In this document: positions 24,164-63,889 of the stretch, piece by piece
How positions within the stretch are numbered: the stretch's first letter is position 1
Layout of the letters: each line of letters starts with the position of its first letter
Source: an uncultured Muribaculaceae bacterium
GTDB taxonomy: Bacteria; Pseudomonadota; Alphaproteobacteria; Rs-D84
DNA length: 64,000 nucleotides
Reading direction: 5' to 3'
NCBI GenBank assembly: GCA_964619545.1
Contig: CAZUED010000002.1
Span: 1,253 to 65,252, forward strand
Position numbers and translations under genes: made by a program
Notes under the pieces: model-generated
The model's input: the letters and a program-made list of their open reading frames with translations, nothing else
What the model was told of the DNA's origin: nothing
Databases searched by the model: none

Positions 24164-24520
24164 TTAAAGCTGTCTGTTGTCCAGAAGTTTTTTCAGCATT
24201 ATTTTTTTGGCATCTGCTGGTGTTTTGCCGAAAAACTTGTTTCTGGTACCAATAAGTGTAAAAAAGTTTATATTACAATTTTCTGATGTTTTTTTTACGT
24301 CCTTGATCCCATAAATGTGGTAACGGATGCTTTCTCCGGTCGAGTAACTACATATGTTTTTTACTTCGGCATAGGTTATTTCGAATGTTTTATGGGATAT
24401 ATTATTTGAAAATTTTACGCTTTGTCCGATTTTATAGATCGGAGCTTCTGGTGTCTTATGTAATGGTATCATTTTAAATCCTTTTTTATTGATCGGGAAA
24501 AATATATCACATAAAAACAT
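24164..24520 (-). CDS. Hypothetical protein (AT-rich ORF in the rpmH-gyrA spacer)
   Basis: ORF only, with no recognisable domain and a lysine-rich tail. It overlaps an alternative plus-strand ORF (24014-24286). It may not be a gene at all. Confidence 0.2.
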   Translation of the reverse strand: MFLCDIFFPINKKGFKMIPLHKTPEAPIYKIGQSVKFSNNISHKTFEITYAEVKNICSYSTGESIRYHIYGIKDVKKTSENCNINFFTLIGTRNKFFGKTPADAKKIMLKKLLDNRQL

Positions 24521-24688: not shown

Positions 24689-27382
24689 ATGTCAGAAATT
24701 AATGAGATTTCCCCAGAAATTAAAGTCCCGACCAGTGCGCTTGAACATGAAATGCGCGGCAGCTTTTTGGACTATGCCATGTCAGTTATTGTTGATCGTG
24801 CTTTGCCAGATGTGCGTGACGGATGCAAGCCTGTTCATCGTCGTATTTTATATGTTATGAACGATGTTGCTCCAGCTACACGTTCAACGGTAAAGTCCGC
24901 ACGTATTGTTGGCGATGTTATGGGAAAATACCATCCGCATGGCGACAGCAGTATTTACGAGGCTATGGTTCGTATGGGGCAGGATTTTTCTATGGGTGCA
25001 TGCTTGGTTCAGGGGCAGGGAAATTTTGGCAGTATGGACGGAGACAAGGCTGCTGCTATGCGTTATACCGAAGCGCGTTTAAGCAAATTGGGTGCGTCAT
25101 TAATGGACGATATGGACAAAGGCACTATTGAATGGATGCCGAATTTTGACGGCAGTTTGCAAGAACCCCAGGTTTTGCCCGCAAAATTTCCAAACTTCTT
25201 GGTAAACGGCGGCAGTGGAATTGCGGTTGGTATGGCGACCAATGTTCCAACCTATAATCTGGGCGAGGTTTGTGATGGTTTGTTGGCTATTCTGGATAGC
25301 TCGGCGCTTACTGATGATGAATTGTTTGGTATTATCCAAGGACCGGATTTTCCAACCGGTGGAATTATGATGGGGCGCTGCGGCGCGTTTAAGGCACACA
25401 CAACTGGTCGTGGCAGTGTTATTGTTCGGGCAAAAACCCATTTTGAAGACTTGAAAGATCGTCACGCGATAATTGTTGATGAAATTCCTTATCAAGTGAA
25501 CAAGGCTCAATTGATAATCAAAATTGCAGAGTTGTCAAAAGATAAACGTGTTGAAGGAATTAGTGAAATTCGTGATGAAACCAGCAAAGAAGGTGTTCGT
25601 ATTGTTATCGAATTAAAGCGTGATGCAATTGGTGATGTTGTATTAAACCAATTATTCCAATATACGGAATTACAAAGCAGTTTTCCCGTAAATATGATGG
25701 CATTAAATCGTGGTCGTCCAATGTTGTTTAATGTTCGTGGAGTTTTAGATGCCTTTATAGATTTCAGAATAGAGGTTATTCGTCGCAGAACCATTTTCGA
25801 ATTGAATAAGGCCAGAAATAAAGCACACACTTTACTGGGTTTGTCTGTTGCGGTTGGAAACTTGGACGAAATTATTGCGCTGATAAAGTCCAGCGAATCG
25901 CCCGAGGCCGCACGCTCATCGCTTGTTGCGCGTAGCTGGAAGGCGTCAGACATTGAAAATTATATCAAGTTGATTGACGATCCAAATACAGAGTACGAAA
26001 ACGGAATGTTCCGTATGAGTGAAGAGCAAGCAAAGGCTATTTTGGAATTGCAGCTGCACAGATTGACTGGATTAGAGCGTGAAAAAATTCACAACGATTT
26101 GGTGGATTTGGGCGCGATTATCAAAGAGTTGTTGGAAATACTGGGCAGCCATGAACGTATTGTTCAAATTATTCGTGATGAAACATCAGCCGTGCGTGAT
26201 AACTGGGCAACGCCGAGAAAAACAATAATTTCAGATGCCGAAGTAGATATGGATATGGAAGACTTGATTGCGCGCGAAGATATGGTTGTTACAATTACCA
26301 ATACCGGATATATCAAACGCGTTGCGCTGGATACTTATCGCGCGCAAAAACGTGGGGGCAAGGGACGCAATGCAATGACAACCAAAGAAGATGATTATGT
26401 TTCCCAGTTGTTTGTTGCAAATACTCATACTCCATTGATGTTCTTCAGCAGTAAGGGTATGTGCTATCGGTTAAAAACTTATAAGCTGCCCGAGGCCGCA
26501 GCCAGCGCCAAGGGCCGTCCATTGATAAATCTGTTGCCATTGTCCGCCGGCGAAACTATAACCGCGATTTTGCCAGTGCCAGATGTTGATGCTGGAACAT
26601 TCTTGATGTTCGCAACCAGCATGGGAACAATCCGCAGAAATGATTTTTCAGACTTTGAAAGCATCCGCGCAAACGGAAAGATTGCAATGAAGTTGGAAGA
26701 GGGCGAAAGCTTGGTCAGTGTTATGCTGTGTAATGAAAACCAGGATGTGTTCTTGTCTACTTATCGTGGCCGCTGCATCAGATTCCCAGTGAATGAAATT
26801 CGCGTATTCCAAAGCCGTAATTCAACCGGTGTTCGCGCAATTAAATTGGCCAAGGATGACACGATTATCGGCATGGCAATGTTGAATCATTCGGACGCAG
26901 ACGCTGAAACACGCGCTGCATATATCAAGCAAAGCCGCGCGCTGCGTCGCGCAGCCGGCGCCGAAGAAGAAGCCGGCGATGAAGAAGAAACAACCAGCAT
27001 TGTTTTGGGCGAATCAACGATGACGGATATGGCACGCGAAGAACAATTTATTTTAACCATCAGTGAAAATGGATTTGGGAAACGCACCAGTTCGTATGAG
27101 TACAGATTGACCCATCGTGGAGGCAGCGGTATCACAGCAATAAAGCTGGGTGGTAAAAACACAGCGGTTGCAGGCAGTTTCCCGATTGATGCCGAACATG
27201 ACATCATGATGGTAACTGATGGCGGTAAAATTATCAGAACTCCGGCAGACGCGGTTCGTATTGCGGGACGTTCTACGGCAGGCGTTACCTTATTTAAAAC
27301 TGCCGAGAACGAGCGGGTAATCAGTGCGACCGCAATTGAAAAAGAAGAAGAAACCGGGGGCGAGGCCACAGATGGCGAATGA
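24689..27382 (+). CDS. gyrA: DNA gyrase subunit A
   Basis: Catalytic region [10 protein letters not shown] with the active-site Tyr. QRDR-like [16 protein letters not shown]-terminal beta-pinwheel repeats and an acidic tail. ACGGAG SD upstream. Confidence 0.95.
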
Positions 27383-27758
27383 ATCATTTCTTTCGATAAA
27401 TGATGTATCAAAGCAATTGGAAATTCCTGCGCATACTTTGCGTTATTGGGAAAAACAATTTCCAGTTGCTATCAAGCCAATAACTGGCGCAGGTGGGCGT
27501 CGATACTATCGCCCTGAAACAATTTCTGCGCTGGGGCATATTCGCACACTGCTTTATGATCGAGGCATGACCATTGCAGGCGTTAAAAAGATGATGAAAG
27601 ATGGTCAATTCAAAAATCATGAAAAGATAACGCCAGTTGAAAAACCAACTAAGTCAGTGGAACAAACATCAGTATCAAAATCAAATTCTGTATCCAGAGT
27701 TGAAGTAGATAGAATTATAGAATCGTTAGAGCAGGCTCGCGAATTATTAAACCCATAA
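27372..27758 (+). CDS. MerR-family HTH transcriptional regulator
   Basis: [28 protein letters not shown]. 4-nt overlap with the gyrA stop. Confidence 0.7.
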
Positions 27759-27760
27759 TA

Positions 27761-27788
27761 AAAATCCCGGTATTTGCGGGGATTTTTA
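27761..27788. terminator. Bidirectional rho-independent terminator
   Basis: ATCCCGG-TATTTG-CGGGGAT hairpin followed by TTTTT. Lies between convergent genes. Confidence 0.7.
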
Positions 27789-28820
27789 TTAAATCAGGTG
27801 GAATTTATAAACCAAGGACAAAGATACCGAATTATCCCTGCCATGCATCAATCCATCCATTTCATTAGAATTTATTTTTTTATAGGCATAAGAAAGTTGC
27901 AAAGATAAATTTTCTATAAAGTTATAACCAACAAATGCCGAGTATTCATATTCATGTATTTTTGATTTATATGGCTCGGATGGCTCAGGTGCTTTATATT
28001 GGGTTTTAATATATTCATATCCCAGCCCAAAGTAAAAATGAATGCTTTTAGGAAAATAAGTGTAGTTAAAGGTAAAACCATATAAGTCTTTGTCTTGATA
28101 GTTTTTTTCAGTATTAAAGTATCTGTAAAATGGGGTCAATCTTAAAACATGTTTTTCATTCAAGTATAATCGGTTTATTAAAAATACAGAATAAACGTAC
28201 CTATTTGTTTCATCGGTTATATTTGAATTATATTCGCGCTTTTCAATTTCAGTGTCCAAAGTGGTATTAAAATTGTTAAAGAAAGAATGGTTTATTTTTA
28301 TTAATGCCCCAAAACCATTGAAAAGCTTTCTGTGGTAAGACCATTCGTCACCATATAAAAACTTTGCAGAAATTTTTGTGTTTTTATCAGGCATTAAAAA
28401 ACTGGGCCCAGTTTGTAATTTAAAATAAAAATCATCAAGTGTCTTATATTGCTTGTAATCACGATAAGTTCCATCAAAAATTGTATCCCAAACGGTATAA
28501 TTAGTAAATTGAAGGACGTTAACCAAATATAATTTGTTCATGGTATAATTGTCATCGTTTGTATTATTAAGAACAAGATTATCTTCATAGTAAAGTGGGT
28601 TTTGTGTATAGGTAAAAGCGGAATTAAAATACCCATATAAATGGATTAGCTTTTGTTTGTCTTCGATATATGATTCTGGAAGTTTATATTTTAATACACC
28701 TTTGTTTCTATAGTATCTGTAATCAATCTCATCACCATCAATATGTTGTGGAACATGATTTGCAAATGCAGAAAAGCAAGGTATAGTAAATAAAAATAAA
28801 TAAATTGTTATTTTTCTCAT
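27789..28820 (-). CDS. Tyr/Asn-rich putative outer-membrane or secreted protein (AT-rich, possibly horizontally acquired)
   Basis: Signal peptide MRKITIYLFLFTIPCFSAFA. Abundant Y/N/F with alternating-hydrophobic beta-strand pattern near the C-terminus (SVSLSLVYKF). GC content is clearly below that of the flanks. Confidence 0.5.
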   Translation of the reverse strand: MRKITIYLFLFTIPCFSAFANHVPQHIDGDEIDYRYYRNKGVLKYKLPESYIEDKQKLIHLYGYFNSAFTYTQNPLYYEDNLVLNNTNDDNYTMNKLYLVNVLQFTNYTVWDTIFDGTYRDYKQYKTLDDFYFKLQTGPSFLMPDKNTKISAKFLYGDEWSYHRKLFNGFGALIKINHSFFNNFNTTLDTEIEKREYNSNITDETNRYVYSVFLINRLYLNEKHVLRLTPFYRYFNTEKNYQDKDLYGFTFNYTYFPKSIHFYFGLGYEYIKTQYKAPEPSEPYKSKIHEYEYSAFVGYNFIENLSLQLSYAYKKINSNEMDGLMHGRDNSVSLSLVYKFHLI

Positions 28821-28836
28821 AAATTAGAACTTTTGG

Positions 28837-29430
28837 TTAAAAAGTATCCCACCAGTTTCTGAAAGGATTTCTAGTTTTAAATAGTTTTTCATCATCCGAA
28901 CCATAAGAGCCCTGACGAGTATTGCTAATGCTTGTACTGCCACCCCCATTATCACCTGACCCACCCCCGTTATTATTACTGCCACCGGCATTTCCAACAT
29001 CTTTATCATTTCCTTGGTTTCCAGGGCCAGTGTTTCCAACCCCACCGCCACTATTTCCATTAGAATTTCCAGCGCCAGAATCTGTAATTACATTGGATGA
29101 GTTACCACCGGCATTACTGCTGCTGGAATTATCAGATGATGAACTGGATGAAGAAGAGTTATCATTTGCACTTGATGATGAGTTACTACCAGCATTACTG
29201 CTGCTGGAATTATCAGATGCTGCGCTGGATGCAGCAGAATTACCACCAGCATTACTATTAGAGTTTGCATTAGATGATGAATTACCACCTGCGTTGCTGT
29301 TGCCATTAGAGCTGTTGGATGCCGCGTTTGAAGACGCTGAATTGCCATTACCATTGTTTGTAGCAATACTTGTGTTCGAGATAAATAAAGCTGTTAAACA
29401 TGATAGAAAAATAGGGTAAATTTTTTTCAT
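28837..29430 (-). CDS. Ser/Asn/Gly-rich low-complexity secreted protein
   Basis: Signal peptide MKKIYPIFLSCLTALFISNTSIA followed by about 150 aa of N/S/G/A repeats (NSSSSN, GGNSS...), ending in NWWDTF. The DNA contains degenerate tandem repeats, and large ORFs also appear in the other two frames, a sign of low-complexity repeat sequence. The minus strand is chosen because of the signal peptide. Confidence 0.45.
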   Translation of the reverse strand: MKKIYPIFLSCLTALFISNTSIATNNGNGNSASSNAASNSSNGNSNAGGNSSSNANSNSNAGGNSAASSAASDNSSSSNAGSNSSSSANDNSSSSSSSSDNSSSSNAGGNSSNVITDSGAGNSNGNSGGGVGNTGPGNQGNDKDVGNAGGSNNNGGGSGDNGGGSTSISNTRQGSYGSDDEKLFKTRNPFRNWWDTF

Positions 29431-29527
29431 GAATATTCATCCTTTGTATCAGAATGTTTATTCAATTATAACTTTTGCGCTTGCTGGAAATAATAGGCAG
29501 ATATTCTTAAATAAAAATAAATGAACT

Positions 29528-29603
29528 TGGCACTCCCAACGGGAATCGAACCCGTGTTTTCAGAATGAGAATCTGACGTCCTGGACCGCTAGACGATGGG
29601 AGC
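29528..29603 (-). tRNA. tRNA-Glu (anticodon CUC as read; Glu isoacceptor)
   Basis: Reverse complement GCTCCCATCGTCTAGCGGTCCAGGACGTCAGATTCTCATTCTGAAAACACGGGTTCGATTCCCGTTGGGAGTGCCA. Glu-type D-arm. Anticodon loop TTCTCAT. Confidence 0.8.
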
Positions 29604-29619
29604 ATAACCTAAAAATAAT

Positions 29620-29693
29620 TGGTTGGCGCGCACAGATTCGAACTGCGATAAAGAGAACCAAAATCTCTTGTCCTACCATTAGACGACGCGCCA
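29620..29693 (-). tRNA. tRNA-Gln (anticodon UUG)
   Basis: Reverse complement TGGCGCGTCGTCTAATGGTAGGACAAGAGATTTTGGTTCTCTTTATCGCAGTTCGAATCTGTGCGCGCCAACCA. U1-A72 pair typical of Gln. Anticodon loop TTTTGGT. Confidence 0.85.
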
Positions 29694-29753
29694 TCAAAGA
29701 TTCACGATTATAAACGACTGCAAAACGAAATCAACAGAAAATTAGGTTTTCTG

Positions 29754-30482
29754 TTATTGTCCAGACCATTTGTTGTTCGTCACAATCAGTCGGGTGTCCA
29801 TTGAAACCCTGCCGCCGGCTTCGCTTACCAGTAACTCGCCCGCACATATTTGGGCATAATCAAGCGGCTGTGAAACAAATCCATCGAATTTTCCAGCAGC
29901 TACCCATGCCATATCAATTGCCGGACATCCAGTTACACGAATTTGCGCAGCAGTTTGGTTGTCATCAATCAAGTCCGCGGAACCAAAAGCAATTGTTAAA
30001 TCCGCAGGCTGGCTGAGGTTAGAAACCTTTATACGCGCAGAGTGAAATGCGGAAAATGCAAATGCACCAGCGCCACTTTCTGCATAATATAATCTTTCGT
30101 CAATCGGGCTGTATACCAGTGCGATTTTGGTTTCGTCATTTGAACGCAAGGCCAATGAAATTGCAAAGTTAGGATTGCTACGAATAAAGTTTTCTGCGCC
30201 GGACAATGCCATAACGAATTCATCACGACCATCGCCATCGCGCGAATAGTTCGGGGTCAGTATGCCAGCCGCTGGTCGTACCAAGGTAAGGTCTTGCAAA
30301 ATAGATTCTTCAATCCGTTGGGCCGCTTTTTTTACAAAATCGCGCGCACCCGAAAGAGATTGCTGTAAGTTTTCAATTTCACCAAAGTCATGACGCAACC
30401 CGGCCGCAGTACGTGCAAGGGCCGCAAACATTTTATTCAGCTCGGACGAGCCTTTTATCAAATGCTCGGTTTGTTCTTTCAT
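29754..30482 (-). CDS. Inositol monophosphatase family protein (SuhB/CysQ-like)
   Basis: IMPase fold motifs (NFIRSNPNFAISLAL; WVAAGKFDGF). The canonical DPIDGT metal-binding motif is not conserved. Start overlaps the rpmE stop. Confidence 0.7.
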   Translation of the reverse strand: MKEQTEHLIKGSSELNKMFAALARTAAGLRHDFGEIENLQQSLSGARDFVKKAAQRIEESILQDLTLVRPAAGILTPNYSRDGDGRDEFVMALSGAENFIRSNPNFAISLALRSNDETKIALVYSPIDERLYYAESGAGAFAFSAFHSARIKVSNLSQPADLTIAFGSADLIDDNQTAAQIRVTGCPAIDMAWVAAGKFDGFVSQPLDYAQICAGELLVSEAGGRVSMDTRLIVTNNKWSGQ

Positions 30483-31427: not shown

Positions 31428-32795
31428 TTACTTTTTTATTTCCTGCCACCACTTTTTCATATTGTCAGTGATTTTTTTCAGGTTATCTTTAGTATCTTTA
31501 TAAAGCTGGTCTGGTATTTTTACATTACCAAATAATGCCCCGGCCAATGCCGGTATGGCGTTCATAAACATCGCCAAAAACAGACCCAGCATAACAATAG
31601 TTATCAGACTTCCATTATTCATCATCAGTCCATCTATTAAAATATGTGAATCATTTTGCGCCAGTGCTGTCTGCAGGGCGCTGGCGCCTTGCCATTTACT
31701 AAACGCTGCGTTCAAGAATAATACCGAAAATGCAGTAAAAATCCCGACCATTGCAATGCCCAAAGTATTTTGGATTACTTGGTCTATAATTATCTGGATG
31801 TTTTTTTTGCCATCGGGCAAAATCATCCAAGGCTTTCCACTGACTGGATCTTGGAATAACCATGCCAGCAGCATCAACGGCAGCATAACCAGATTCATTC
31901 CCAGTTGGATAAATGTTTCCAGAAAGTAAAGCGGAACAGGCAGCAAAGCAAAGAAAAATAAAACTATAATTAAAAGCCCTGCCAAAAACATTGCTACATT
32001 AGGGAAAATTGGAATGCCGAAAATCAGCTTGTGCATATGTTGATCATTGAAAGACATATTCATAATTGTCCAGCCAGCAGTCATACCCAGGCCGGTCATC
32101 TGATGAATCTGACCAACCTGGCATGCCAGATTATGGCGCAACTTTGGTGAAAAAGCCCCATCAGTTGCGGCGCTTTTATCCGCGCTGGTCGGGTCCATAA
32201 CGGCAGTTGCGACCAGGCAGGATTCAAAAGAATACTCGTTGTCGGTACCTGCTGCGAACTTTCCATCCACCGCATGCGAAAGCGATAATCCTACATTAAA
32301 AATAGGCTCTATCGCGACATTAGTGATAAAGCGCGGAACTGGCATAGCCAGCAGTAATACAACAAAAGTCAGTTTTACCAGGTGTGTGCCCAACTTTCCT
32401 GAAAATCCCCATGCGTCTGGGCTTTTTGGTGTGCCCTCGATTCCCAGGTATCCTTTCAGGACTTCCCATCCAAAATATACAGCGGTCAGTCCAAATGCCA
32501 AAGGAATGCAGACAGCACCGATTGCAGAATAAATGCGTGGCAGAATGTTTGATATAACCAACATAATGTCGCCCATCATGCCACAAGACCAGCAGCTGGA
32601 AAAAAAGGAAAGCGCATCCGCCATATTTACCGGCGCCATAGAGCGATAGATAGAAAAGCCGGCTATTGCGACGCCGCCCCCAATGGCTCCGATGGCCAAT
32701 GGCGCAATTGCCCCAGCAGAAAGGGGCATGAAAGAAAGAAAGAGTATCCAAAATTTTTTAAGTCTGGTCACAACAGAATTATACCATAATTTCAT
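31428..32795 (-). CDS. Polytopic membrane protein, paralog 1 of a five-member family (VirB6/TrbL-like topology)
   Basis: About six TM helices, a large central hydrophilic loop after TM2 containing MPVPRFITNVAIEP, and a K-rich C-terminal tail. The N-terminal CWSCG motif aligns with the CWSCP of paralog 3. The ORF is open up to a TTG at 32819. The first ATG is 32795. Paralog alignment suggests the mature N-terminus may begin near MADALSFFSSCWSC (about 32624). Confidence 0.6.
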   Translation of the reverse strand: MKLWYNSVVTRLKKFWILFLSFMPLSAGAIAPLAIGAIGGGVAIAGFSIYRSMAPVNMADALSFFSSCWSCGMMGDIMLVISNILPRIYSAIGAVCIPLAFGLTAVYFGWEVLKGYLGIEGTPKSPDAWGFSGKLGTHLVKLTFVVLLLAMPVPRFITNVAIEPIFNVGLSLSHAVDGKFAAGTDNEYSFESCLVATAVMDPTSADKSAATDGAFSPKLRHNLACQVGQIHQMTGLGMTAGWTIMNMSFNDQHMHKLIFGIPIFPNVAMFLAGLLIIVLFFFALLPVPLYFLETFIQLGMNLVMLPLMLLAWLFQDPVSGKPWMILPDGKKNIQIIIDQVIQNTLGIAMVGIFTAFSVLFLNAAFSKWQGASALQTALAQNDSHILIDGLMMNNGSLITIVMLGLFLAMFMNAIPALAGALFGNVKIPDQLYKDTKDNLKKITDNMKKWWQEIKK

Positions 32796-32822
32796 CTGGC
32801 TTTTTATGCTATAATCCAAAGA

Positions 32823-34094
32823 ATGAAAAAAGCTCTTGTATTTTTTCTGGTAACGGCTTTCTGTTCGTTGGTATCGGTCCAGGCCAATGCGGCCTGGAGT
32901 ATTGTGGATTCGTTGGACATTTCGCCTTTTGTTCCAATTGTTTTGGACGCAATGATGTCGGTCGCTATGGCAGGTTATGAATTTTTTGTGGGTAAAGGTG
33001 ATGGAATTATTTACTTGTTTGTTTGGGGTTGGTTGGGTTGGTTTATCGCTTTATACCTTGTAAAAATGTATTTTCCACAAAATTGGTTGGACTTTTTCGG
33101 GATGAAGGGTGGACAGATGTGGAACAAACCATCTGCACTGAAGATTTCTGAAGATGTATTAAAGCCTTGCATTCGTGGCGTAATTGCAGCAGCGTTGTTG
33201 CTTCCCATAAAGCCGCAATACATTACAGGAATTATAGTTGATCCTTTCTTGCAATTTGGTGCGCTTTATACGCAAAGCATTTCTGACAATGTAAATCAGA
33301 TGAATTTAAGCGCTCCTGTGCAGAAAGAAAAAGTCATGTGTCCACCGGAAATTATTGATAAAGGATATATCTCGGCCGCCAGCTGCCAGTTCTTGGTTCA
33401 GCCTGTCGCAGAAATAACGCATGCAAACAATCAGGTTATAAAACGCGGGTTGGGTTTTGTTACCGCTGGATTGGCTGGCCTGATGACTTTGATTCCGCAC
33501 GGCGGTGGGGACATTATGAATTTGGTAACAGGTATTTTCTTGGTATTTGCATTTGTCGCCAGCAATTTCTTTATGGCCCTGTTGATAATTCAAGGAATTT
33601 TTGAATTTGGTATGGCGCTGATAATGTATCCGTTCAAGGTTTTAATGTTTGTTGCAAAAAATTCCAAAGATTGGGTAAATCCATGGCCCGCATTCGAAGG
33701 AATTATAAAAAGCCTGAAAAAACTAGTAATAACAATGATTGCTTGCGCGTTTGTTTTGGCGATAAATTTGGCAGCGATAAAGGCTTTGTTTAACTTTAAT
33801 CAATCAGCATTTGTTGTGGCTGCTGGTGGCAGTGCGTCCAGCAATGTTCCGGTTGTGGCGGCTGGCATCAATGGATTTGGGCAACACTCTATAATATGGC
33901 TGTCTGCAATGCTGACATTCTTTTTAATGTTCAAGATTTTCGAGCTGACCAAAAAGCAGTTATTGGATTATACAGGATCTGGTTCGGACGCTTTGTATAA
34001 AAAAGCAACCGGTGACGCCAAAAACGTATGGAGCAAAACAAACGAGTGGGGCCGCGGCGCGGCCAAGGTATTTGGCTGGATTAAGAAAAAATGA
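32823..34094 (+). CDS. Polytopic membrane protein, paralog 2 (signal peptide; VirB6/TrbL-like topology)
   Basis: Signal peptide MKKALVFFLVTAFCSLVSVQANA. TM pair, then the loop LPIKPQYITGIIVDPFLQFGALYTQSI, then 3-4 TM helices, then a K-rich tail (...GWIKKK). Shares the NSKDW...P.F motif with paralog 3. Confidence 0.65.
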   Translation: MKKALVFFLVTAFCSLVSVQANAAWSIVDSLDISPFVPIVLDAMMSVAMAGYEFFVGKGDGIIYLFVWGWLGWFIALYLVKMYFPQNWLDFFGMKGGQMWNKPSALKISEDVLKPCIRGVIAAALLLPIKPQYITGIIVDPFLQFGALYTQSISDNVNQMNLSAPVQKEKVMCPPEIIDKGYISAASCQFLVQPVAEITHANNQVIKRGLGFVTAGLAGLMTLIPHGGGDIMNLVTGIFLVFAFVASNFFMALLIIQGIFEFGMALIMYPFKVLMFVAKNSKDWVNPWPAFEGIIKSLKKLVITMIACAFVLAINLAAIKALFNFNQSAFVVAAGGSASSNVPVVAAGINGFGQHSIIWLSAMLTFFLMFKIFELTKKQLLDYTGSGSDALYKKATGDAKNVWSKTNEWGRGAAKVFGWIKKK

Positions 34095-35305
34095 ACGGAA
34101 TGATTGATTCTTTTGTTTCAAATTCAGTGCAGTGTTGGAGCTGCCCTGTCTTTGATCGCCTGTTCCAAATAATTTCTGCCGCGACATCTGCGGTTTATGG
34201 CAAGTTGTCTGTTCTGGCGGCTGTTTTGCTTTGTGTTTTTGTTGCGTTCTATGTTTTGTATTCGGTTATAACAAATCTGCGTGATGTAAAAAACATTGAT
34301 CCGACTTATCAGACTTACTTGAAGCCGGTAATGATAAACTCGCTGTTTGTAATCGCTATTTTGGGATTGGGGGTTATGGTGCCGCGGTTTATCACCCGGG
34401 TCAGTTTTGAGCCGGTTGCAGATATGACGCTTATCTATACCCAATCCATGCTGAATACAAACATGTCAGATGTAGCGCAAAAGGTTCAATACAATCCTGA
34501 AAAAATGCCTGATGACGGATTTTATCGTCCAGAGCTTCGCGATAAAATAATTCAGCTGATGAAAACCAGTATCACCCAATTCCAGTCAATGGTAAGGCTG
34601 GGGATGACTATTATGGATAATGCGTTTTCTTGGGATGTGTTGCTGGGGGTGGGTGCGCTGGTAAAACACATAATACTATTTTTTATGGGGCTTTATATTG
34701 CATGGGCCTTTTTCAAGCTGTTTATAAAATTCTGTTTTTATTTTGTTGATGTTGTAATAGACATGACTTTCTTTGCATTTTTCTTCCCATTTATGTTGGT
34801 CTTTTGGGTTTTCAGAAATTCTAAAAGTGCGGATTGGATAAAAAGTATGGGTGATAAAATAACACCAGCATTTTTCCAAAACTTAATAAACTCTATCGTG
34901 TCATTGGCGACGGTTGTTATAACCTATGTTGTGATAATAACCATAATGGCAAAGTTCCTGACGGGCTTTGGCAGCGGCAGCGCCGAAATGACGCGTCAAA
35001 TTATGGACGGCAGCATATTTGCAGGCGACCTGTCTGATGATAATCTGGCAATGATTACTTTGGGTGGCACATTGGTATTGGTCTATGTGGTTCAGTATCT
35101 GGCAGACAATATAAAGAATGTATCCAGAGAAATAACAGAAACTTTTGGAGTCAAAGACAGACATGAAGCCGGTGATTCTTTGGGTGAAGATGTATTAAAA
35201 ATAGGCAAAAACACATTTGACTTTGCGAAAAGCACAGGCAAAATTATTATGGCCGCAGCGACAGGTAAAGAGGCCGATAAAAAAGAAGAGTCAAGCAGCA
35301 AGTAA
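34091..35305 (+). CDS. Polytopic membrane protein, paralog 3
   Basis: N-terminal CWSCPVFDRLF motif. TM1-TM2, then loop VPRFITRVSFEPVADMTLIYTQSM, then four TM helices. C-terminal tail ...GKEADKKEESSSK. ATGA overlap with paralog 2. Confidence 0.65.
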   Translation: MNGMIDSFVSNSVQCWSCPVFDRLFQIISAATSAVYGKLSVLAAVLLCVFVAFYVLYSVITNLRDVKNIDPTYQTYLKPVMINSLFVIAILGLGVMVPRFITRVSFEPVADMTLIYTQSMLNTNMSDVAQKVQYNPEKMPDDGFYRPELRDKIIQLMKTSITQFQSMVRLGMTIMDNAFSWDVLLGVGALVKHIILFFMGLYIAWAFFKLFIKFCFYFVDVVIDMTFFAFFFPFMLVFWVFRNSKSADWIKSMGDKITPAFFQNLINSIVSLATVVITYVVIITIMAKFLTGFGSGSAEMTRQIMDGSIFAGDLSDDNLAMITLGGTLVLVYVVQYLADNIKNVSREITETFGVKDRHEAGDSLGEDVLKIGKNTFDFAKSTGKIIMAAATGKEADKKEESSSK

Positions 35306-36765
35306 TGTTAAAAAACAAACTTATCTTGACAGCGGTAAAGGCGGCGATGTGGATTATCGCGATTGGCATTGGCATCTGGTATTTGTCGGCCAGTATCAAT
35401 GGCGATTCTATTACTTACGCCAGCATGAATAGTTTCTTGCAGACCACAGGTGCATGCAAGGGCGCTGTTTGCGACATCAGTGCAACGAATGGATGCTTTC
35501 TTTGCCCGTATGTAAATCAATTGTTTAATGTAATTGGTACTGCGACAAATGATTTTTGGGATGCACTGGTTGGCAACCTATGGGTATTGATTGCCCTGGG
35601 CTTTATAATTTTTCTGTTTGTTCATACCTGGAAAACAATGGCAAAGGCGAATAAAGAAAACATTGCCGTGGGCGCAGGGGAACGTAAATTTGATTTCAAG
35701 GAATGGTTTGACGGAGTATGGAAGCAAGCTGCACGGGTTTTGGCAGTCGGCGCATTTTTGGGCGCGATAAGTTTTGGTGGCACAGGAGTTCTGCGAGCAG
35801 TATCAGACATCACCATACGCCCTGTGATGTATGTCGGGGCAGAATTGGCAATGGCTGCAACTGGCGAAGTTGGCGCGGCCCATTGCCCAGCGCTGGAATC
35901 GATGAGCGAATCAAATGTGGTTGGTCCTGCGTTAAAACCTTTTATGTGCGTGGTTGGAAATGCCAGCAATGTTATTCTGGCGGGTGCATCTGGCGGATTT
36001 GCATTGATGAATTTTTCATGGATGGGAATGGGCGGCGGGCTTTTTACTTGGATGGCTGGATTGGGGCTGGTCATAATGTTTTTAGTTATCGGATTTGGTT
36101 TGTTCTTTGACATTCTGAATGTAGTTTTCAGATTGGTATTTATAATTATTTTCTTACCCATAATTATCGCCAGCTATGCGTATGAAAATGTTTGGGGAGT
36201 ATTAAAGGGGGCAATCGGCAAATCGGTCGAGATGTTGGTAAATTGCGCGGTCAGGGTTGCCGCAATTACACTGAAAGTTTTAATAATTTACGCGGTTGTT
36301 TCTGTTGCAGCGGACGAGTATTTCCCAGGGCCGACAGATGGGTACTCGGCAATACTTCCGCCAGGTTTTGCTGGAATGCAAACCGCGCAAAATTCTGAAA
36401 ACCAAGTCGTTGCCCAAGTGTTTGCGAATTGCGAAAAAGTGTCAGTTGTGAATGGCGCGATGGACAAGAATTTATTCAAGGCTTGTTTTGACCGCCAAAA
36501 AGCAACGGCTGAAATTATGCATCCGGGGGCATTTGATTTTATGGGCAATGGTTGGGAATTCTTTATGCTGATGCTGGGTATATTCTTGTTGTATTTCTAT
36601 GTAGTTCAGAAAAAGATAGATGAAGTTTTAGTGGTGGGTAAAGACGGCAAAGACCCCATATTCAACATTGGCAGCCAGTTCAAGGAATTTGGTAAAAAAG
36701 TATGGGACATCCCAGCCCAGCTGACCAAGAAGATAACGGACGCAACGGAAAAAAATAAGGAATAA
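35305..36765 (+). CDS. Polytopic membrane protein, paralog 4
   Basis: N-terminal anchor followed by a Cys cluster (CKGAVC...CFLCPYVNQLF), aligned with the CWSCP region of paralog 3. Loop RAVSDITIRPVMYVGAELAMAATG. Multiple TM helices. Tail ...KKITDATEKNKE. Start overlaps the stop of paralog 3. Confidence 0.65.
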   Translation: MLKNKLILTAVKAAMWIIAIGIGIWYLSASINGDSITYASMNSFLQTTGACKGAVCDISATNGCFLCPYVNQLFNVIGTATNDFWDALVGNLWVLIALGFIIFLFVHTWKTMAKANKENIAVGAGERKFDFKEWFDGVWKQAARVLAVGAFLGAISFGGTGVLRAVSDITIRPVMYVGAELAMAATGEVGAAHCPALESMSESNVVGPALKPFMCVVGNASNVILAGASGGFALMNFSWMGMGGGLFTWMAGLGLVIMFLVIGFGLFFDILNVVFRLVFIIIFLPIIIASYAYENVWGVLKGAIGKSVEMLVNCAVRVAAITLKVLIIYAVVSVAADEYFPGPTDGYSAILPPGFAGMQTAQNSENQVVAQVFANCEKVSVVNGAMDKNLFKACFDRQKATAEIMHPGAFDFMGNGWEFFMLMLGIFLLYFYVVQKKIDEVLVVGKDGKDPIFNIGSQFKEFGKKVWDIPAQLTKKITDATEKNKE

Positions 36766-38069
36766 TGGCTTCGCTTCGTTTACATCTTAAAAAAATAATT
36801 GCACCAAGTATGGTGGCGGTCATATTTGCTTTTTGCACCTTGTTTTTTACAGGTTCATCTTATGCCGAAGCGAATGTTCCAACCACCAGCGACATTGGAA
36901 ATTATGGAGTTTGGGCGACCGAGCACAATCGGCAGCTTTTAATAAACAATCTTTCTACGGACATAAGTTCTTTCCAAGGCAATACCCAAAAGGCGATTGT
37001 TGGCGACTATGTTCCAGTAGAGGCGCGCGTGGGCAAAGCACTTATCGGCGCACTGGATCGGGTAGGCCAGGCATTGCAGCGCAGTCTTTTTGACTTTGTC
37101 CGAGTTCTGTTGGTTGCATTGTTTGCTTTTTGGTTGGCGTTCGAAGCATATAATTTAATTCAGTCAAAGGGTGATTCTAAAAAGCTGGCGCTGGACATTG
37201 CAAAAAAAACTATGCTGATTTCAATTTGGATTTGGGTGTTGGGAAATAATCCTGGTCAAATTTTTATGACAATTTTTGGACCGATCATTTCAGTTGGCAG
37301 CTATGCATCAGATTTAATACTGAATTCTATTACCAATGCTGCTGGGACCAGTTTACCAGATACTTGCAATGCTATACGAGGCTTCATAGGCTCGACCGAT
37401 AATAACTATACTGCTGATTTGTTGTGCATGCCGACCAGATTGTCCGGATTCTTTTATACCTGTGTGGCGGCAGGATTCAAATGGATGGCGGCGGGAATTG
37501 GTGAAAGCGCGCTTACCTTTGTTGCCGGCGCGGTCTTTGTTGTGATTTTCTCGATAAATATATGGAAGTTCGCATTACTGGCATTGGGTGTAATAACTGA
37601 TTTGTTCTTGGCGATTTTGCTTCTGCCATTTACGGCTATCCAAGAATGCTTTGGCAAAGGGACAAATCTGAAAGGTGTCGCTGGAAATATATTCAAGGCT
37701 TTTGCAGGAATTTTCAAGTCCGCCAGTTTAAGTGAGCAAATTATGCGTTTTATTAAGGCAGTGATATATTTTGTTGCCTTGGCATTGATGGCGGCAATTG
37801 GTGCAGCTTTGCTGGGCGGGGTAGTCAGCACTGATTTAGCGTCTGCGACGCCATCGGTACAAAGCGATAGTTTTATGTCGGTTTTGATAGTCGGGTGTCT
37901 GGTTGCGTATATGGTATCAAAATCATCAAAGTGGGCAGAAAATTTTGGTGGCAAAATAGATGATTCGTTCGGCAAGCAGGTTCAGGGCGATATGAAAAAG
38001 CTATGGGACAATACAAAAAAGCAGGTTTCAGACTGGCGGAAAATTTATCAGGAACAAAAGAAAAAATAG
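36765..38069 (+). CDS. Polytopic membrane protein, paralog 5 (signal peptide)
   Basis: Signal peptide, then a 100-aa periplasmic N-terminal region, then TM helices. Tail ...KKQVSDWRKIYQEQKKK. Start overlaps the stop of paralog 4. Confidence 0.6.
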   Translation: MASLRLHLKKIIAPSMVAVIFAFCTLFFTGSSYAEANVPTTSDIGNYGVWATEHNRQLLINNLSTDISSFQGNTQKAIVGDYVPVEARVGKALIGALDRVGQALQRSLFDFVRVLLVALFAFWLAFEAYNLIQSKGDSKKLALDIAKKTMLISIWIWVLGNNPGQIFMTIFGPIISVGSYASDLILNSITNAAGTSLPDTCNAIRGFIGSTDNNYTADLLCMPTRLSGFFYTCVAAGFKWMAAGIGESALTFVAGAVFVVIFSINIWKFALLALGVITDLFLAILLLPFTAIQECFGKGTNLKGVAGNIFKAFAGIFKSASLSEQIMRFIKAVIYFVALALMAAIGAALLGGVVSTDLASATPSVQSDSFMSVLIVGCLVAYMVSKSSKWAENFGGKIDDSFGKQVQGDMKKLWDNTKKQVSDWRKIYQEQKKK

Positions 38070-61675: not shown

Positions 61676-63889
61676 ATGGCTGAAAAATTCAACATTTTAT
61701 CGTTTTCGGGTAAGGGCAAGGGTTTGAAAATCTTTGACTCGTCCGCGTACAAGGACCACGAAAAGGCCCCAATGGGGCGTATGTTTTGGAATATGCGATA
61801 CAAAGTTATCGTATGGCTGTCTTGCTTTTTCGTATTTATTTTGGCGTTTCCGATTGAGCATTTGTGGCGATATGGATGGTCGCCCGCATCTGCAAAATGG
61901 ATTGGTATTTATTTTACAAACTTTTTATACAGTGTTGGTTTATCTGTTTTTGCAGAGATTCCAGAATGGTTAAGTCGCGCTGCAACTCAGCCAGACATTG
62001 CAGCTATTGCCCCATTGCTGCCTATTGCGATATATTTTGTTCTGACGGACGAAACTTTATTGAAAGAATTTAATCCGTTTGGCAAAGATGTTTTGAAAGA
62101 AGAATCATCCCGCAAAGCAAATGATGAAGACATCAAAAAAATGGGATTAATGGATGGCTTTATGATGGTGTTGGGATACTGGAAGAAAAAACCATTGATG
62201 ATGAAGGAAACGCTGTCTGCGCTTTGTTTAGCGCCCCCCGGGACCGGTAAAACCCAAGGTGTTGTATTGCCGACAATCTTTGAGTGCAACAATGTTTCGA
62301 TGATTATCAATGATCCAAAGCCCGAATTAAAACAGCAATCGTCGGCCTATCGTGCGCAGAATGTTGGGCCTGTGTTCATTATGAATTGGGCGGGACAAGA
62401 TGATCCAATGGCTGGAATTTATTACCCTTCATGGAATCCATTATCGCCATCCCATGTGCCATTTATTACCGAAGAGCGTGATTTGTATATTGATTCTATT
62501 TGCGCGACATTGATTGCGGATAAAACCAGTTCGTCGGCAGATCCGCACTGGACGATTTCTGGACGCGCGGCATTGTCAGGCTTGATAAACTTTATGGTGT
62601 CCAAGATTGATAAAGCCAAAGCGGACGAATATTTTTATGCGCGTTTGCAATCAGGCGAATTTGATGCCGAAGATGCGGCGTTGCTGGGCGAGTATTACAC
62701 AATGATGAATGACCCAAATGCTGATGCTGCACGGTATGCGTTGGCAAATGGTCAGCTGAATGCAATGAATTATGTTCATGTTGGAACATGGGCGATGATT
62801 CCGGACGACTGGGTTGGTCGCGAAGCATCAATGTCCATGATTCTGGATTGGCTGAATAAAAGCCAGGTGCGAATTGCGGAAGAGTTGGAAAATCGACGCA
62901 AGCAAGGCGATCAAATGGTTATGATGGCCGATCCTATGAAAGATTTGTTCCAAAATGCTGTGAATGAGGCATTACAATACGGATACTCGCACCGTGCGGT
63001 TTTGGAATTGACACAACTTGCAAATACTCCGGATAAAGAACGCGGTTCTATTATTTCAACCGTTCTGGCGGGACTTTCTATTTTCAGAAATGCGGCCGTT
63101 CGCAATCGCACCAGCCACAGCGACTTCCACTTCAGCGATTTGCGTGGAATGATTGATCCACGTGATGGCAAAGTAAAGCCAGTATCCGTTTACCTTTCTA
63201 TTAATCAAGTTGATTCCGAAGCATTAAATCCAATAACTGCAATCTTTATTGAATTGATGTCCAGGTTCTTGATAGCAAATGCCCCCGATGGCGAACACGC
63301 AGGGCAAAAGTTGGGCCCATATCCAGTGTTATTTGTTTTGGACGAGATGCCAAAAATGCAAAAGATGCAGGCGATTATCCAGGGTCCCGACATAGGTCGT
63401 GGTCAGCAAGTTTCGTATTTGATTATCGGTCAGGACATTGCGCAAATTCGTGAAAAATATGGCGCGGACGCGGCGCAGACTATCATTTCTACGACTGCGG
63501 CAAAGGTTATCTTGCGCCAGAATAATATGGAAACTGCAGAAATGTTTTCCAAGATGATGGGTGAAAAAGTAGAATCTAAAAAGAGCAAAGGCCCAGATGG
63601 TAAAGAAACTGAAAGCACGGACAGAAAGCCGCTTTACAGCTCTATGGACATCATGAAACTTGATTCGAAAAAGCAGCTGGTTATATTCCAGGGTTATTAC
63701 AATCGCCCGATCGAGGCAGATTACAGCCCGGCCTATGCGGACGAGACTTTGCAAAAGTACAGAAAGTTGGGCGAAAGTCCGCCATTACCAGAATTCTTGG
63801 TTGCATCCCATCATGCTGCTATGCGGTATCGTGGCACTCCTCGTCAATATGACCCAATGACAAAGACCATAAAGGATTTGGCGGCGTGA
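61676..63889 (+). CDS. virD4: Type IV secretion coupling protein (VirD4/TraG family ATPase)
   Basis: Two N-terminal TM helices. Walker A LCLAPPGTGKTQGVVLPTIF (cf. VirD4 LVVAPTRAGKGVGVVIPTLL). Walker B VLFVLDEMPKMQKMQ (cf. VLFLLDEFKHLGKL). C-terminal SYLIIGQDIAQIREKYG region (cf. MFIIQSLSALSGTYDEAG). An alternative start is M33 (61772). Confidence 0.75.
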   Translation: MAEKFNILSFSGKGKGLKIFDSSAYKDHEKAPMGRMFWNMRYKVIVWLSCFFVFILAFPIEHLWRYGWSPASAKWIGIYFTNFLYSVGLSVFAEIPEWLSRAATQPDIAAIAPLLPIAIYFVLTDETLLKEFNPFGKDVLKEESSRKANDEDIKKMGLMDGFMMVLGYWKKKPLMMKETLSALCLAPPGTGKTQGVVLPTIFECNNVSMIINDPKPELKQQSSAYRAQNVGPVFIMNWAGQDDPMAGIYYPSWNPLSPSHVPFITEERDLYIDSICATLIADKTSSSADPHWTISGRAALSGLINFMVSKIDKAKADEYFYARLQSGEFDAEDAALLGEYYTMMNDPNADAARYALANGQLNAMNYVHVGTWAMIPDDWVGREASMSMILDWLNKSQVRIAEELENRRKQGDQMVMMADPMKDLFQNAVNEALQYGYSHRAVLELTQLANTPDKERGSIISTVLAGLSIFRNAAVRNRTSHSDFHFSDLRGMIDPRDGKVKPVSVYLSINQVDSEALNPITAIFIELMSRFLIANAPDGEHAGQKLGPYPVLFVLDEMPKMQKMQAIIQGPDIGRGQQVSYLIIGQDIAQIREKYGADAAQTIISTTAAKVILRQNNMETAEMFSKMMGEKVESKKSKGPDGKETESTDRKPLYSSMDIMKLDSKKQLVIFQGYYNRPIEADYSPAYADETLQKYRKLGESPPLPEFLVASHHAAMRYRGTPRQYDPMTKTIKDLAA

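Follow-up and report, generated by a model that had tools for sequence, protein, structure and literature searches.

A tRNA-flanked gene pair in an uncultured alphaproteobacterium: an outer-membrane barrel, possibly a minimal Slam-like translocon, and a low-complexity protein with a conserved C-terminal tail

The 64,000-nt stretch of alphaproteobacterial DNA analysed here (the window, whose positions are used as coordinates throughout) carries on its minus strand, beside tRNA-Glu and tRNA-Gln, a cassette of two genes, one for an outer-membrane barrel protein of 343 aa and one for a secreted low-complexity protein of 197 aa. We consider it an even call that this cassette is a dispensable two-gene operon, encoding a minimal TPR-less, Slam-like translocon together with a disordered cargo or partner that is recognised by a short C-terminal tail. 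The more specific idea, that the TPR-less barrel exports or displays the disordered, non-lipidated protein by means of a W-[WF]-acidic-x-F-COOH tag in a minimal type-11-like secretion system, is doubtful and is offered tentatively. An earlier reading of the bare sequence (the original prediction) had described the region as a possible small genomic islet; it overlooked that the two genes are a co-conserved module and that the barrel has a Slam-like character.

Joint action of the two products is best supported by the conservation of the genes as a pair, in which the type of tail tracks the clade of the barrel. The barrel family is very small and extremely rare: a search of 5.8 billion clusters returned five relatives of the 343-aa protein, one of them identical, and the family profile retrieved 10 proteins at E <= 1e-3 among 1.84 billion representatives. 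No match came from a scan of GTDB genomes with the family alignment or from two metagenome scans, and a word-seeded search with alignment A2 recovered known members only. The hosts that have a name are metagenome-assembled genomes of uncultured Alphaproteobacteria, and the family is confined to uncultured contigs of Alphaproteobacteria type with a low guanine-plus-cytosine (GC) content. Upstream DNA is readable for eight family genes (the window, two in contig L001, and one each in L007, L008, L010, L011 and L012), including the distant homologues P0007 (L010, 31% identity), P0009 (L011, 22%) and P0010 (L012, 20%). In 8/8 cases a small low-complexity gene lies upstream on the same strand, at a gap of 3-25 nt (16 nt in the window). 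A signal peptide can be read in the four partners whose N-terminus is on the contig, namely those of the window, L001 (both) and L011, and its architecture in the L001 and L011 partners is like that of the window protein.

Outside the tail these partners are unalignable, while barrel identity drops to 20-31%, and their repeats differ by clade: Gly/Asn units in one, two or three copies, DTPDIP, GGT or PVEE. The tail itself reads NPFRNWWDTF in the window, RDFNNWWDIF and SPFRNWWDIF in L001, NPFKNWWDTF in both L007 and L008, RRHWWDELF in L010, DSSWFEF in L011 and DDSWFDF in L012, thus following the barrel clades as NWWD[TI]F, HWWDELF and SWF[ED]F; across the five close partners the residues F, N, W, W, D and F are invariant (alignment A3). 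A scan of 158 kb, with 13,084 stops over six frames, gave 8 matches to W-[WF]-[DE]-x0-2-F-stop, each of them in the open reading frame (ORF) that precedes a barrel gene; since these tails had already been inspected when the pattern was defined, the zero background is the informative part of the count. The presence of such a tail alongside the barrel of each relative found suggests that the two proteins are a minimal pair for secretion or surface display.

The mature small protein consists of 28% Ser, 22% Asn and 18% Gly, together 68% of its residues, and belongs to no Pfam or NCBIfam family. Its Gly/Asn unit, GAGNSNGNSGGGVGNTGPGNQGNDKDVGNAGG, is present once in the window, twice in the 148-aa partner of L001 and three times in L007. 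The possibility of a lipoprotein cargo was rejected, since Cys residue 11 sits within the hydrophobic core of the signal peptide and there is no lipobox in a usable position. A search for further tail-bearing proteins found none; it yielded just three small secreted proteins (P0037-P0039), which share with the window protein the exact unit GVGNTGPGNQGN...GNAGG. These proteins and L009:10001-10405, on a phage-like contig of 63% GC with terminase and primase genes, lack the WWDxF tail and have another C-terminal domain, which contains Cys; possibly the unit is a mobile module.

The barrel protein is rich in Tyr (12%), Asn (9%) and Phe (8%), and the measured compositions of both products match the original description of a Tyr/Asn-rich and a Ser/Asn/Gly-rich protein. 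By inspection, both N-termini look like Sec signal peptides of signal peptidase I (SPase I) type, as had been claimed, and neither product shows a catalytic domain in Pfam or NCBIfam. Behind the signal peptide of the barrel protein lies a 35-residue extension with invariant H22, P24, H26, G29, D30, I32 and D33 (alignment A1), which is conserved yet modelled as disordered, with a predicted local distance difference test score (pLDDT) <50 for residues 1-56. The remainder is predicted by AlphaFold2 to form a 14-stranded beta-barrel; two independent runs gave 14 strands each, with pLDDT 73.4 and predicted template-modelling score (pTM) 0.73 in one and pLDDT 71.6 and pTM 0.70 in the other, and pLDDT was mostly 80-93 within the barrel.

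The link to Slam barrels comes from profile comparison. In the search of 1.84 billion representatives the family profile matched four proteins outside the family (P0011, P0012, P0013 and P0014), among them P0011 and P0012 with the A1 profile at library-wide E values of 1e-6 and 9e-5. Both of these exceed the gathering threshold of Pfam SlipAM (DUF560) and have a weak N-terminal TPR_Slam match just under its cut-off. When the family was aligned with P0011 and P0012 by hhalign, the result was 98.8% (E 5.5e-17) over 282 columns spanning the whole barrel; the alignment begins right after the TPR domain of P0011/P0012 and extends to the C-terminus, and the negative control, the autotransporter barrel of L012, gave 1.1%. 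Motifs common to both sides are TGP, E-[KR]-R-x-[YF]-x-N, Y-x-D and SY-x-x-K-x-[IV]-x-SN. Considering this homology over the whole barrel and the lack of a match to PF04575, we place the window protein outside PF04575, as a TPR-less protein remotely related to the Slam superfamily. An autotransporter or type 5 split was rejected in view of the hhalign control and of the absence of any Pfam Autotransporter or POTRA match in the window protein. An Omp85 match appeared only in the relative P0009 and below threshold (15.5 bits, cut-off 24).

The analysis shows how the locus is built, that its two genes are conserved as a pair, that 14 strands are predicted for the barrel, that the barrel is remotely homologous to Slam proteins and that the cassette is accessory. 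Beyond this, we propose the following course of events. Sec would export both products, and the 343-aa protein would fold in the outer membrane as a 14-stranded, Slam/DUF560-like barrel without a periplasmic TPR domain. The 197-aa protein would be an unfolded Ser/Asn/Gly-rich chain, whose sole conserved feature is the tail ...F-x-N-W-W-D-[TI]-F-COOH. By analogy with Slam1, the barrel may recognise this tail and thread the disordered chain across the outer membrane, so that the chain would end up at the cell surface, either released or tethered by its tail. The exposed repeats could then diverge freely in sequence and number, with tail and barrel co-evolving. On computational grounds, we infer that the genes are co-transcribed, that the barrel recognises the tail, and that the chain is translocated and located at the surface. 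Published work offers precedents for several of these steps. Slam1 acts on its own in translocating unfolded cargo, in the authors' model by way of a C-terminal specificity motif (PMC9090332). Barrels of DUF560 have 14 strands, and in NilB removal of the whole N-terminal domain relieved the colonization defects caused by small deletions in the TPR region (PMC8406197). Many clusters of the type 11 secretion system (T11SS) are without a known cargo (PMC12282271).

If the tag operates in this way, the small protein would represent a new class of cargo, and the Slam superfamily would have its first secretion signal that is both short and transplantable. Such a bare barrel, paired with an unfolded protein whose conserved tail is 5-10 residues long, would make cargo recognition by Slam, the need for a TPR domain and the need for a cargo barrel testable, and the tag might serve as a compact device for surface display. 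For annotation, two 'hypothetical proteins' become a recognisable module, and the locus documents, in one alphaproteobacterial clade, a tRNA-flanked hotspot with gain, loss, duplication and decay of this module. This significance is bounded by the rarity of the family, by hosts that are all uncultured and by the inferred nature of each functional step.

Several results weigh against a Slam-like translocon. Pfam SlipAM (PF04575) matches neither the window protein, nor six relatives, nor the family consensus, at E up to 1-10. No TPR domain is found by Pfam, and the stretch between the signal peptide and strand 1 is only about 35 residues long. Slam is reached in two remote steps, by way of two SlipAM members that are themselves marginal (38.8 and 33.9 bits), and the equally similar outgroups P0013 (a barrel behind an acidic linker and a weak TPR match) and P0014 (a barrel with an acidic N-terminus), at about 98.3% in hhalign, match porin/BBP2 models instead of SlipAM. 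The small protein does not have the 8-stranded C-terminal barrel (TbpBBD/lipoprotein C) that defines known T11SS cargo (PMC12282271). On the structural side, the AlphaFold2 input alignments were shallow (7 sequences), and Foldseek against the PDB returned only generic barrels of 14-16 strands, such as FadL, CymA, OmpG (TMt, the target template-modelling score, 0.67-0.68) and PgaA. When AlphaFold2 was given the barrel fused in a single chain to the 45 C-terminal residues of the small protein, the tail stayed undocked (pLDDT ~23), an uninformative outcome that we do not count as negative evidence. The PDB yielded neither a sequence relative of the barrel nor a solved structure of a Slam barrel for comparison of folds.

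Among known systems, the pair is most like an outer-membrane protein and cargo pair of a T11SS (Neisseria Slam1/2, Xenorhabdus NilB, HrpB). Common to both are a single barrel with 14 predicted strands, the profile homology, a neighbouring gene for a Sec-exported protein with a conserved C-terminal element, and a location in variable DNA, with T11SS loci also tending toward mobile or variable regions (PMC12282271). The pair fails three defining features, i.e., the Pfam model, the TPR domain (about 140 aa in known systems) and the 8-stranded cargo barrel; moreover, the family is tiny and the partner is not a lipoprotein, having a tail of about 10 residues after some 165 low-complexity residues. 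The marine cluster 3 T11SS of Rhodobacteraceae resembles our case as an alphaproteobacterial DUF560 group whose cargo is not of the canonical C-terminal barrel type, but its members co-occur with DUF1194 proteins rather than tailed low-complexity proteins (PMC12282271). P0011, the nearest SlipAM-positive relative, comes from a marine metagenome and presumably belongs to this cluster; it has weak N-terminal TPR_Slam matches, unlike the family described here. P0011 and P0014 lie on short contigs with unusable upstream context. The monomeric solved barrels OmpG, CymA and FadL, also 14-stranded, are the best Foldseek matches, but share only 9-13% identity, give no sequence-profile match and have no dedicated tailed partner gene.

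The main rival holds that nothing is translocated. The small protein would be a stable partner that plugs, latches or anchors itself in or beneath the barrel with its aromatic-acidic tail, giving a gated channel or a periplasm-facing tether in place of the TPR domain. Indeed, conservation is limited to a short tail with a terminal Phe-COOH, similar to beta-signals or PDZ-type ligands, the N-terminal extension of the barrel is conserved but unstructured, and co-conservation of the pair is compatible with any physical interaction. However, some 170 hypervariable low-complexity residues are rare in accessory subunits; here both the kind of repeat and its copy number differ between close relatives, a pattern typical of exposed regions, and AlphaFold2 gave no docking signal. 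We regard a stable partner of this kind as unlikely. An ordinary porin or substrate channel that shares its operon with an unrelated secreted protein, or a pair for export of a fibre or exopolysaccharide (YjbE/YjbH, GfcA/GfcD, curli), fits less well and is quite improbable. Small low-complexity proteins do occur in operons of outer-membrane proteins, as in E. coli yjbEFGH and gfcABCDE, and the Gly/Asn units are loosely reminiscent of amyloid repeats. The best Pfam match of the family is OMP_b-brl (PF13505) at 24.8 bits, under the cut-off of 28.7, and Porin_4 (PF13609) reaches 7.8-16.8 bits against a cut-off of 27, short of membership among general porins; the Foldseek matches to FadL, CymA, OmpG, porins and PgaA go in the same direction. 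Against a common fibre subunit, the tail is kept across barrel clades while the chemistry of the repeats changes wholly (GN, DTPDIP, GGT, PVEE); against an unrelated neighbour, the eight pairs exceed chance co-occurrence. There is no glycosyltransferase or other export gene nearby and no Pfam match to the curli, Fap or YjbH families; with neither family matches nor companion genes, curli, Fap and exopolysaccharide export were rejected as specific candidates.

The anatomy of the locus (Table 1) is as originally described in its main lines. ORF coordinates, ARAGORN and Rfam place two minus-strand ORFs beside tRNA-Glu and tRNA-Gln, with gyrA and merR on one flank and suhB and rpmE on the other; the minus-strand order is suhB, tRNA-Gln, tRNA-Glu, the small gene and the barrel gene. 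The barrel gene is convergent with merR (ending at 27758) and gyrA, and at this far side lies the strong bidirectional terminator that had been predicted. Its arms form a perfect 13-nt inverted repeat (27756-27768 and 27779-27791, 100% complementary) with an A-run and a T-run, and overlap the stop codons of both convergent genes. The small gene has an AGGA ribosome-binding site 8 nt ahead of its ATG. Possibly the two genes are an operon co-transcribed with the two upstream tRNAs and terminating at the shared terminator. A scan with Rfam found no family beyond the two tRNAs.

Table 1. Features of the cassette and its surroundings in the window
Feature	Position	Strand	Basis and remarks
suhB	29754-30482	-	Upstream of tRNA-Gln; rpmE also on this side
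Promoter-like site TTGATT-16-TATAAT	29734-29707		Just upstream of tRNA-Gln; 10/12, consensus match only
tRNA-Gln, anticodon TTG	29620-29693	-	ARAGORN; Rfam tRNA, 57.9 bits; heads the run tRNA-Gln, tRNA-Glu, small gene, barrel gene
tRNA-Glu, anticodon CTC	29528-29603	-	ARAGORN; Rfam, 62.3 bits
Small gene, 197 aa, secreted low-complexity Ser/Asn/Gly protein	28837-29430	-	ORF
Signal peptide of the small protein, residues 1-23, MKKIYPIFLSCLTALFISNTSIA, then TN	29362-29430	-	SPase I type, read from the sequence by inspection
81-nt (27-codon) tandem repeat, 1.9 copies, Ser/Asn-rich part	29096-29251	-	Tandem Repeats Finder, 84% matches, score 221; repeat family D2
Gly/Asn unit, residues 119-150	28981-29076	-	Alignment A3 and translations
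C-terminal tail NPFRNWWDTF-COOH, proposed recognition or docking motif	28840-28869	-	Alignment of partners
Barrel gene, 343 aa, outer-membrane protein	27789-28820	-	ORF; starts 16 nt past the small-gene stop
Signal peptide of the barrel protein, residues 1-20, MRKITIYLFLFTIPCFSAFA, then NH	28761-28820	-	Sec/SPase I type, by inspection of the sequence
Predicted 14-stranded beta-barrel, residues 59-342	27795-28646	-	AlphaFold2
Bidirectional intrinsic terminator, merR (+) and barrel gene (-)	27756-27791	both	Inverted repeat I11 and terminator scan

The presence of the cassette varies among relatives, as the original prediction had suggested it might. In the nearest relative (L015/L016, GCA_964368385.1; GyrA 92.8%, SuhB 88%, flanks about 85% nt identity to the window) the cassette is cleanly absent: L015 runs from suhB through tRNA-Gln and tRNA-Glu to about 60 nt with the same terminator and then merR, the terminator being kept beside tRNA-Glu in the junction sequence AAAAATCCGCCAAATGGCGGATTTTTT. 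The 3' end of tRNA-Glu faces the cassette, and the indel begins about 13 nt beyond this tRNA, at a BLAST boundary where window 29515 is aligned to L015 8978. This species is often sampled and none of the family searches returned a barrel homologue from it, so it would lack the cassette altogether. The cassette is single in the window, L007 and L008, the latter two being further variants of the gap, and double in the more distant L001 (GyrA 89.5%), where the two copies are 52.5% identical to each other, one lying between the two tRNAs and the other past tRNA-Glu. The L001 gap also holds a NUDIX gene, a GDSL lipase gene and three unassigned genes, all of 29-36% GC against 42-45% in the flanks. 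The gap between suhB and merR is a hotspot of accessory AT-rich genes.

Such a setting raises the possibility of a small foreign islet, integrated recently at tRNA-Glu/tRNA-Gln and carrying genes for host interaction or antigenic variation, as the original prediction had it. In its favour are the position 3' of two tRNAs, a barrel gene that is the lowest in GC of the window, the absence of the cassette from the nearest relative and its doubling in another; a 186-nt insert in L016 with a repeat of the tRNA-Gln 3' end shows that the site accepts DNA, and many sister-species contigs stop just past tRNA-Glu. The base composition itself bears out only half of the claim that both genes are AT-rich. 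The barrel gene has 28.5% GC, against 41.5 +/- 2.7% for the 57 other ORFs (z = -4.8) and 41.5% for the window as a whole, and its 1-kb bin is the window minimum (30.2%; the next-lowest bin has 36.6%). The small gene, at 41.1% (z = -0.16), equals the window average and is low only at the third codon position (27.3%, z = -2.45, tied with gidB), while GC at its second position is very high (60%) because of its Ser, Gly and Ala codons. In the barrel gene GC is low at codon positions 1, 2 and 3, and since the first two are also shifted, amino-acid bias accounts for part of the signal. In the distant homologues the GC of the barrel gene equals that of neighbouring genes, which lends no support to a foreign source.

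Nor does the structure of the site favour integration. No integrase or transposase is found around the cassette in the window or in L001, and there is no tRNA-derived direct repeat or att-like repeat in window 27300-29800 or L001 6100-13450, so that no copy of the tRNA 3' end marks the far boundary. On the tree ((window, L015), L001), drawn from GyrA and SuhB distances, a cassette after tRNA-Glu in both the window and L001 brackets the cassette-free L015, and loss is thus more parsimonious than recent gain; the cassette is probably ancestral to the clade and was lost in the L015 lineage. Barrel identity is 47-54%, against 89.5% for GyrA and 100% for L31, and the divergence of the barrel also exceeds that of SuhB, in keeping with the earlier view of exported, fast-diverging envelope products. 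The upper value, 54%, is within the range of the neighbouring MerR (58.6%), whose divergence the barrel resembles. Three samples of the window strain are 99.96-100% identical over the region examined; their repeats are identical with no change in length, and the suggested antigenic or phase variation is therefore not borne out. Considering all this, a recent foreign islet appears rather improbable. The cassette shares with tRNA-associated genomic islands the 3' side of tRNAs, one gene of atypical GC and variable presence and copy number, but it differs from them in having no integrase or att repeats, in being only 1.8 kb long and in being probably ancestral and then lost in one lineage.

Further observations concern the same gap. 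The L016 insert (L016:8850-9075) is GC-rich, lies between tRNA-Gln and tRNA-Glu, is absent from L015 and the window, and has no Rfam match; on either side is a 13-nt direct repeat, CCCAACCAATTAT, a duplicate of the tRNA-Gln 3' end that resembles the footprint of a small integrating element. Among the suhB contigs of the sister species (L017-L024), 8/10 end at or within about 65 nt past tRNA-Glu, which is the cassette slot in the window; this suggests population heterogeneity that breaks assemblies at the hotspot. P0006, a 137-aa protein from another metagenome, seems to derive from a cassette-A-type barrel by an internal deletion that joined its first 100 to its last 25 residues, and suggests that the cassette also decays in place. 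In relatives, an accessory gene family that is missing from the window follows the barrel gene (L001:11134-12580, L007:1885-2235 and L008:1333-1677). It has the repeated motif ...N-[YH]-AV-[LTI]-M/L-x-I-[AT]-KN... PPLL-x-[LI]I..., and its sole Pfam match is a weak one to DUF5751.

Elsewhere in the window, the merR frame overlaps the end of gyrA (27324-27382) if the longest ORF, from GTG 27324, is taken; relatives favour a start at ATG 27372 (MANESF...), which leaves an 11-nt overlap. A 118-aa ORF at 24164-24520 (-), between an acyl-ACP thioesterase gene and gyrA, has no family match and ranks second in AT content among the ORFs of the window (31.7% GC); in L001 and L015 a gene for 102-108 aa is called at the matching position, a correspondence that is positional only. 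Window 31428-38069 holds five adjoining genes whose products, polytopic membrane proteins, are 404-486 aa long and have about 6-8 hydrophobic segments per protein. These are distant paralogues (21-23% identity for the three pairs found by BLASTP) with no Pfam or NCBIfam match, and the array is kept in L001 and L015. Given a gene for a VirD4-type coupling protein at 61676-63889, the five may be VirB6-like components of type IV secretion.

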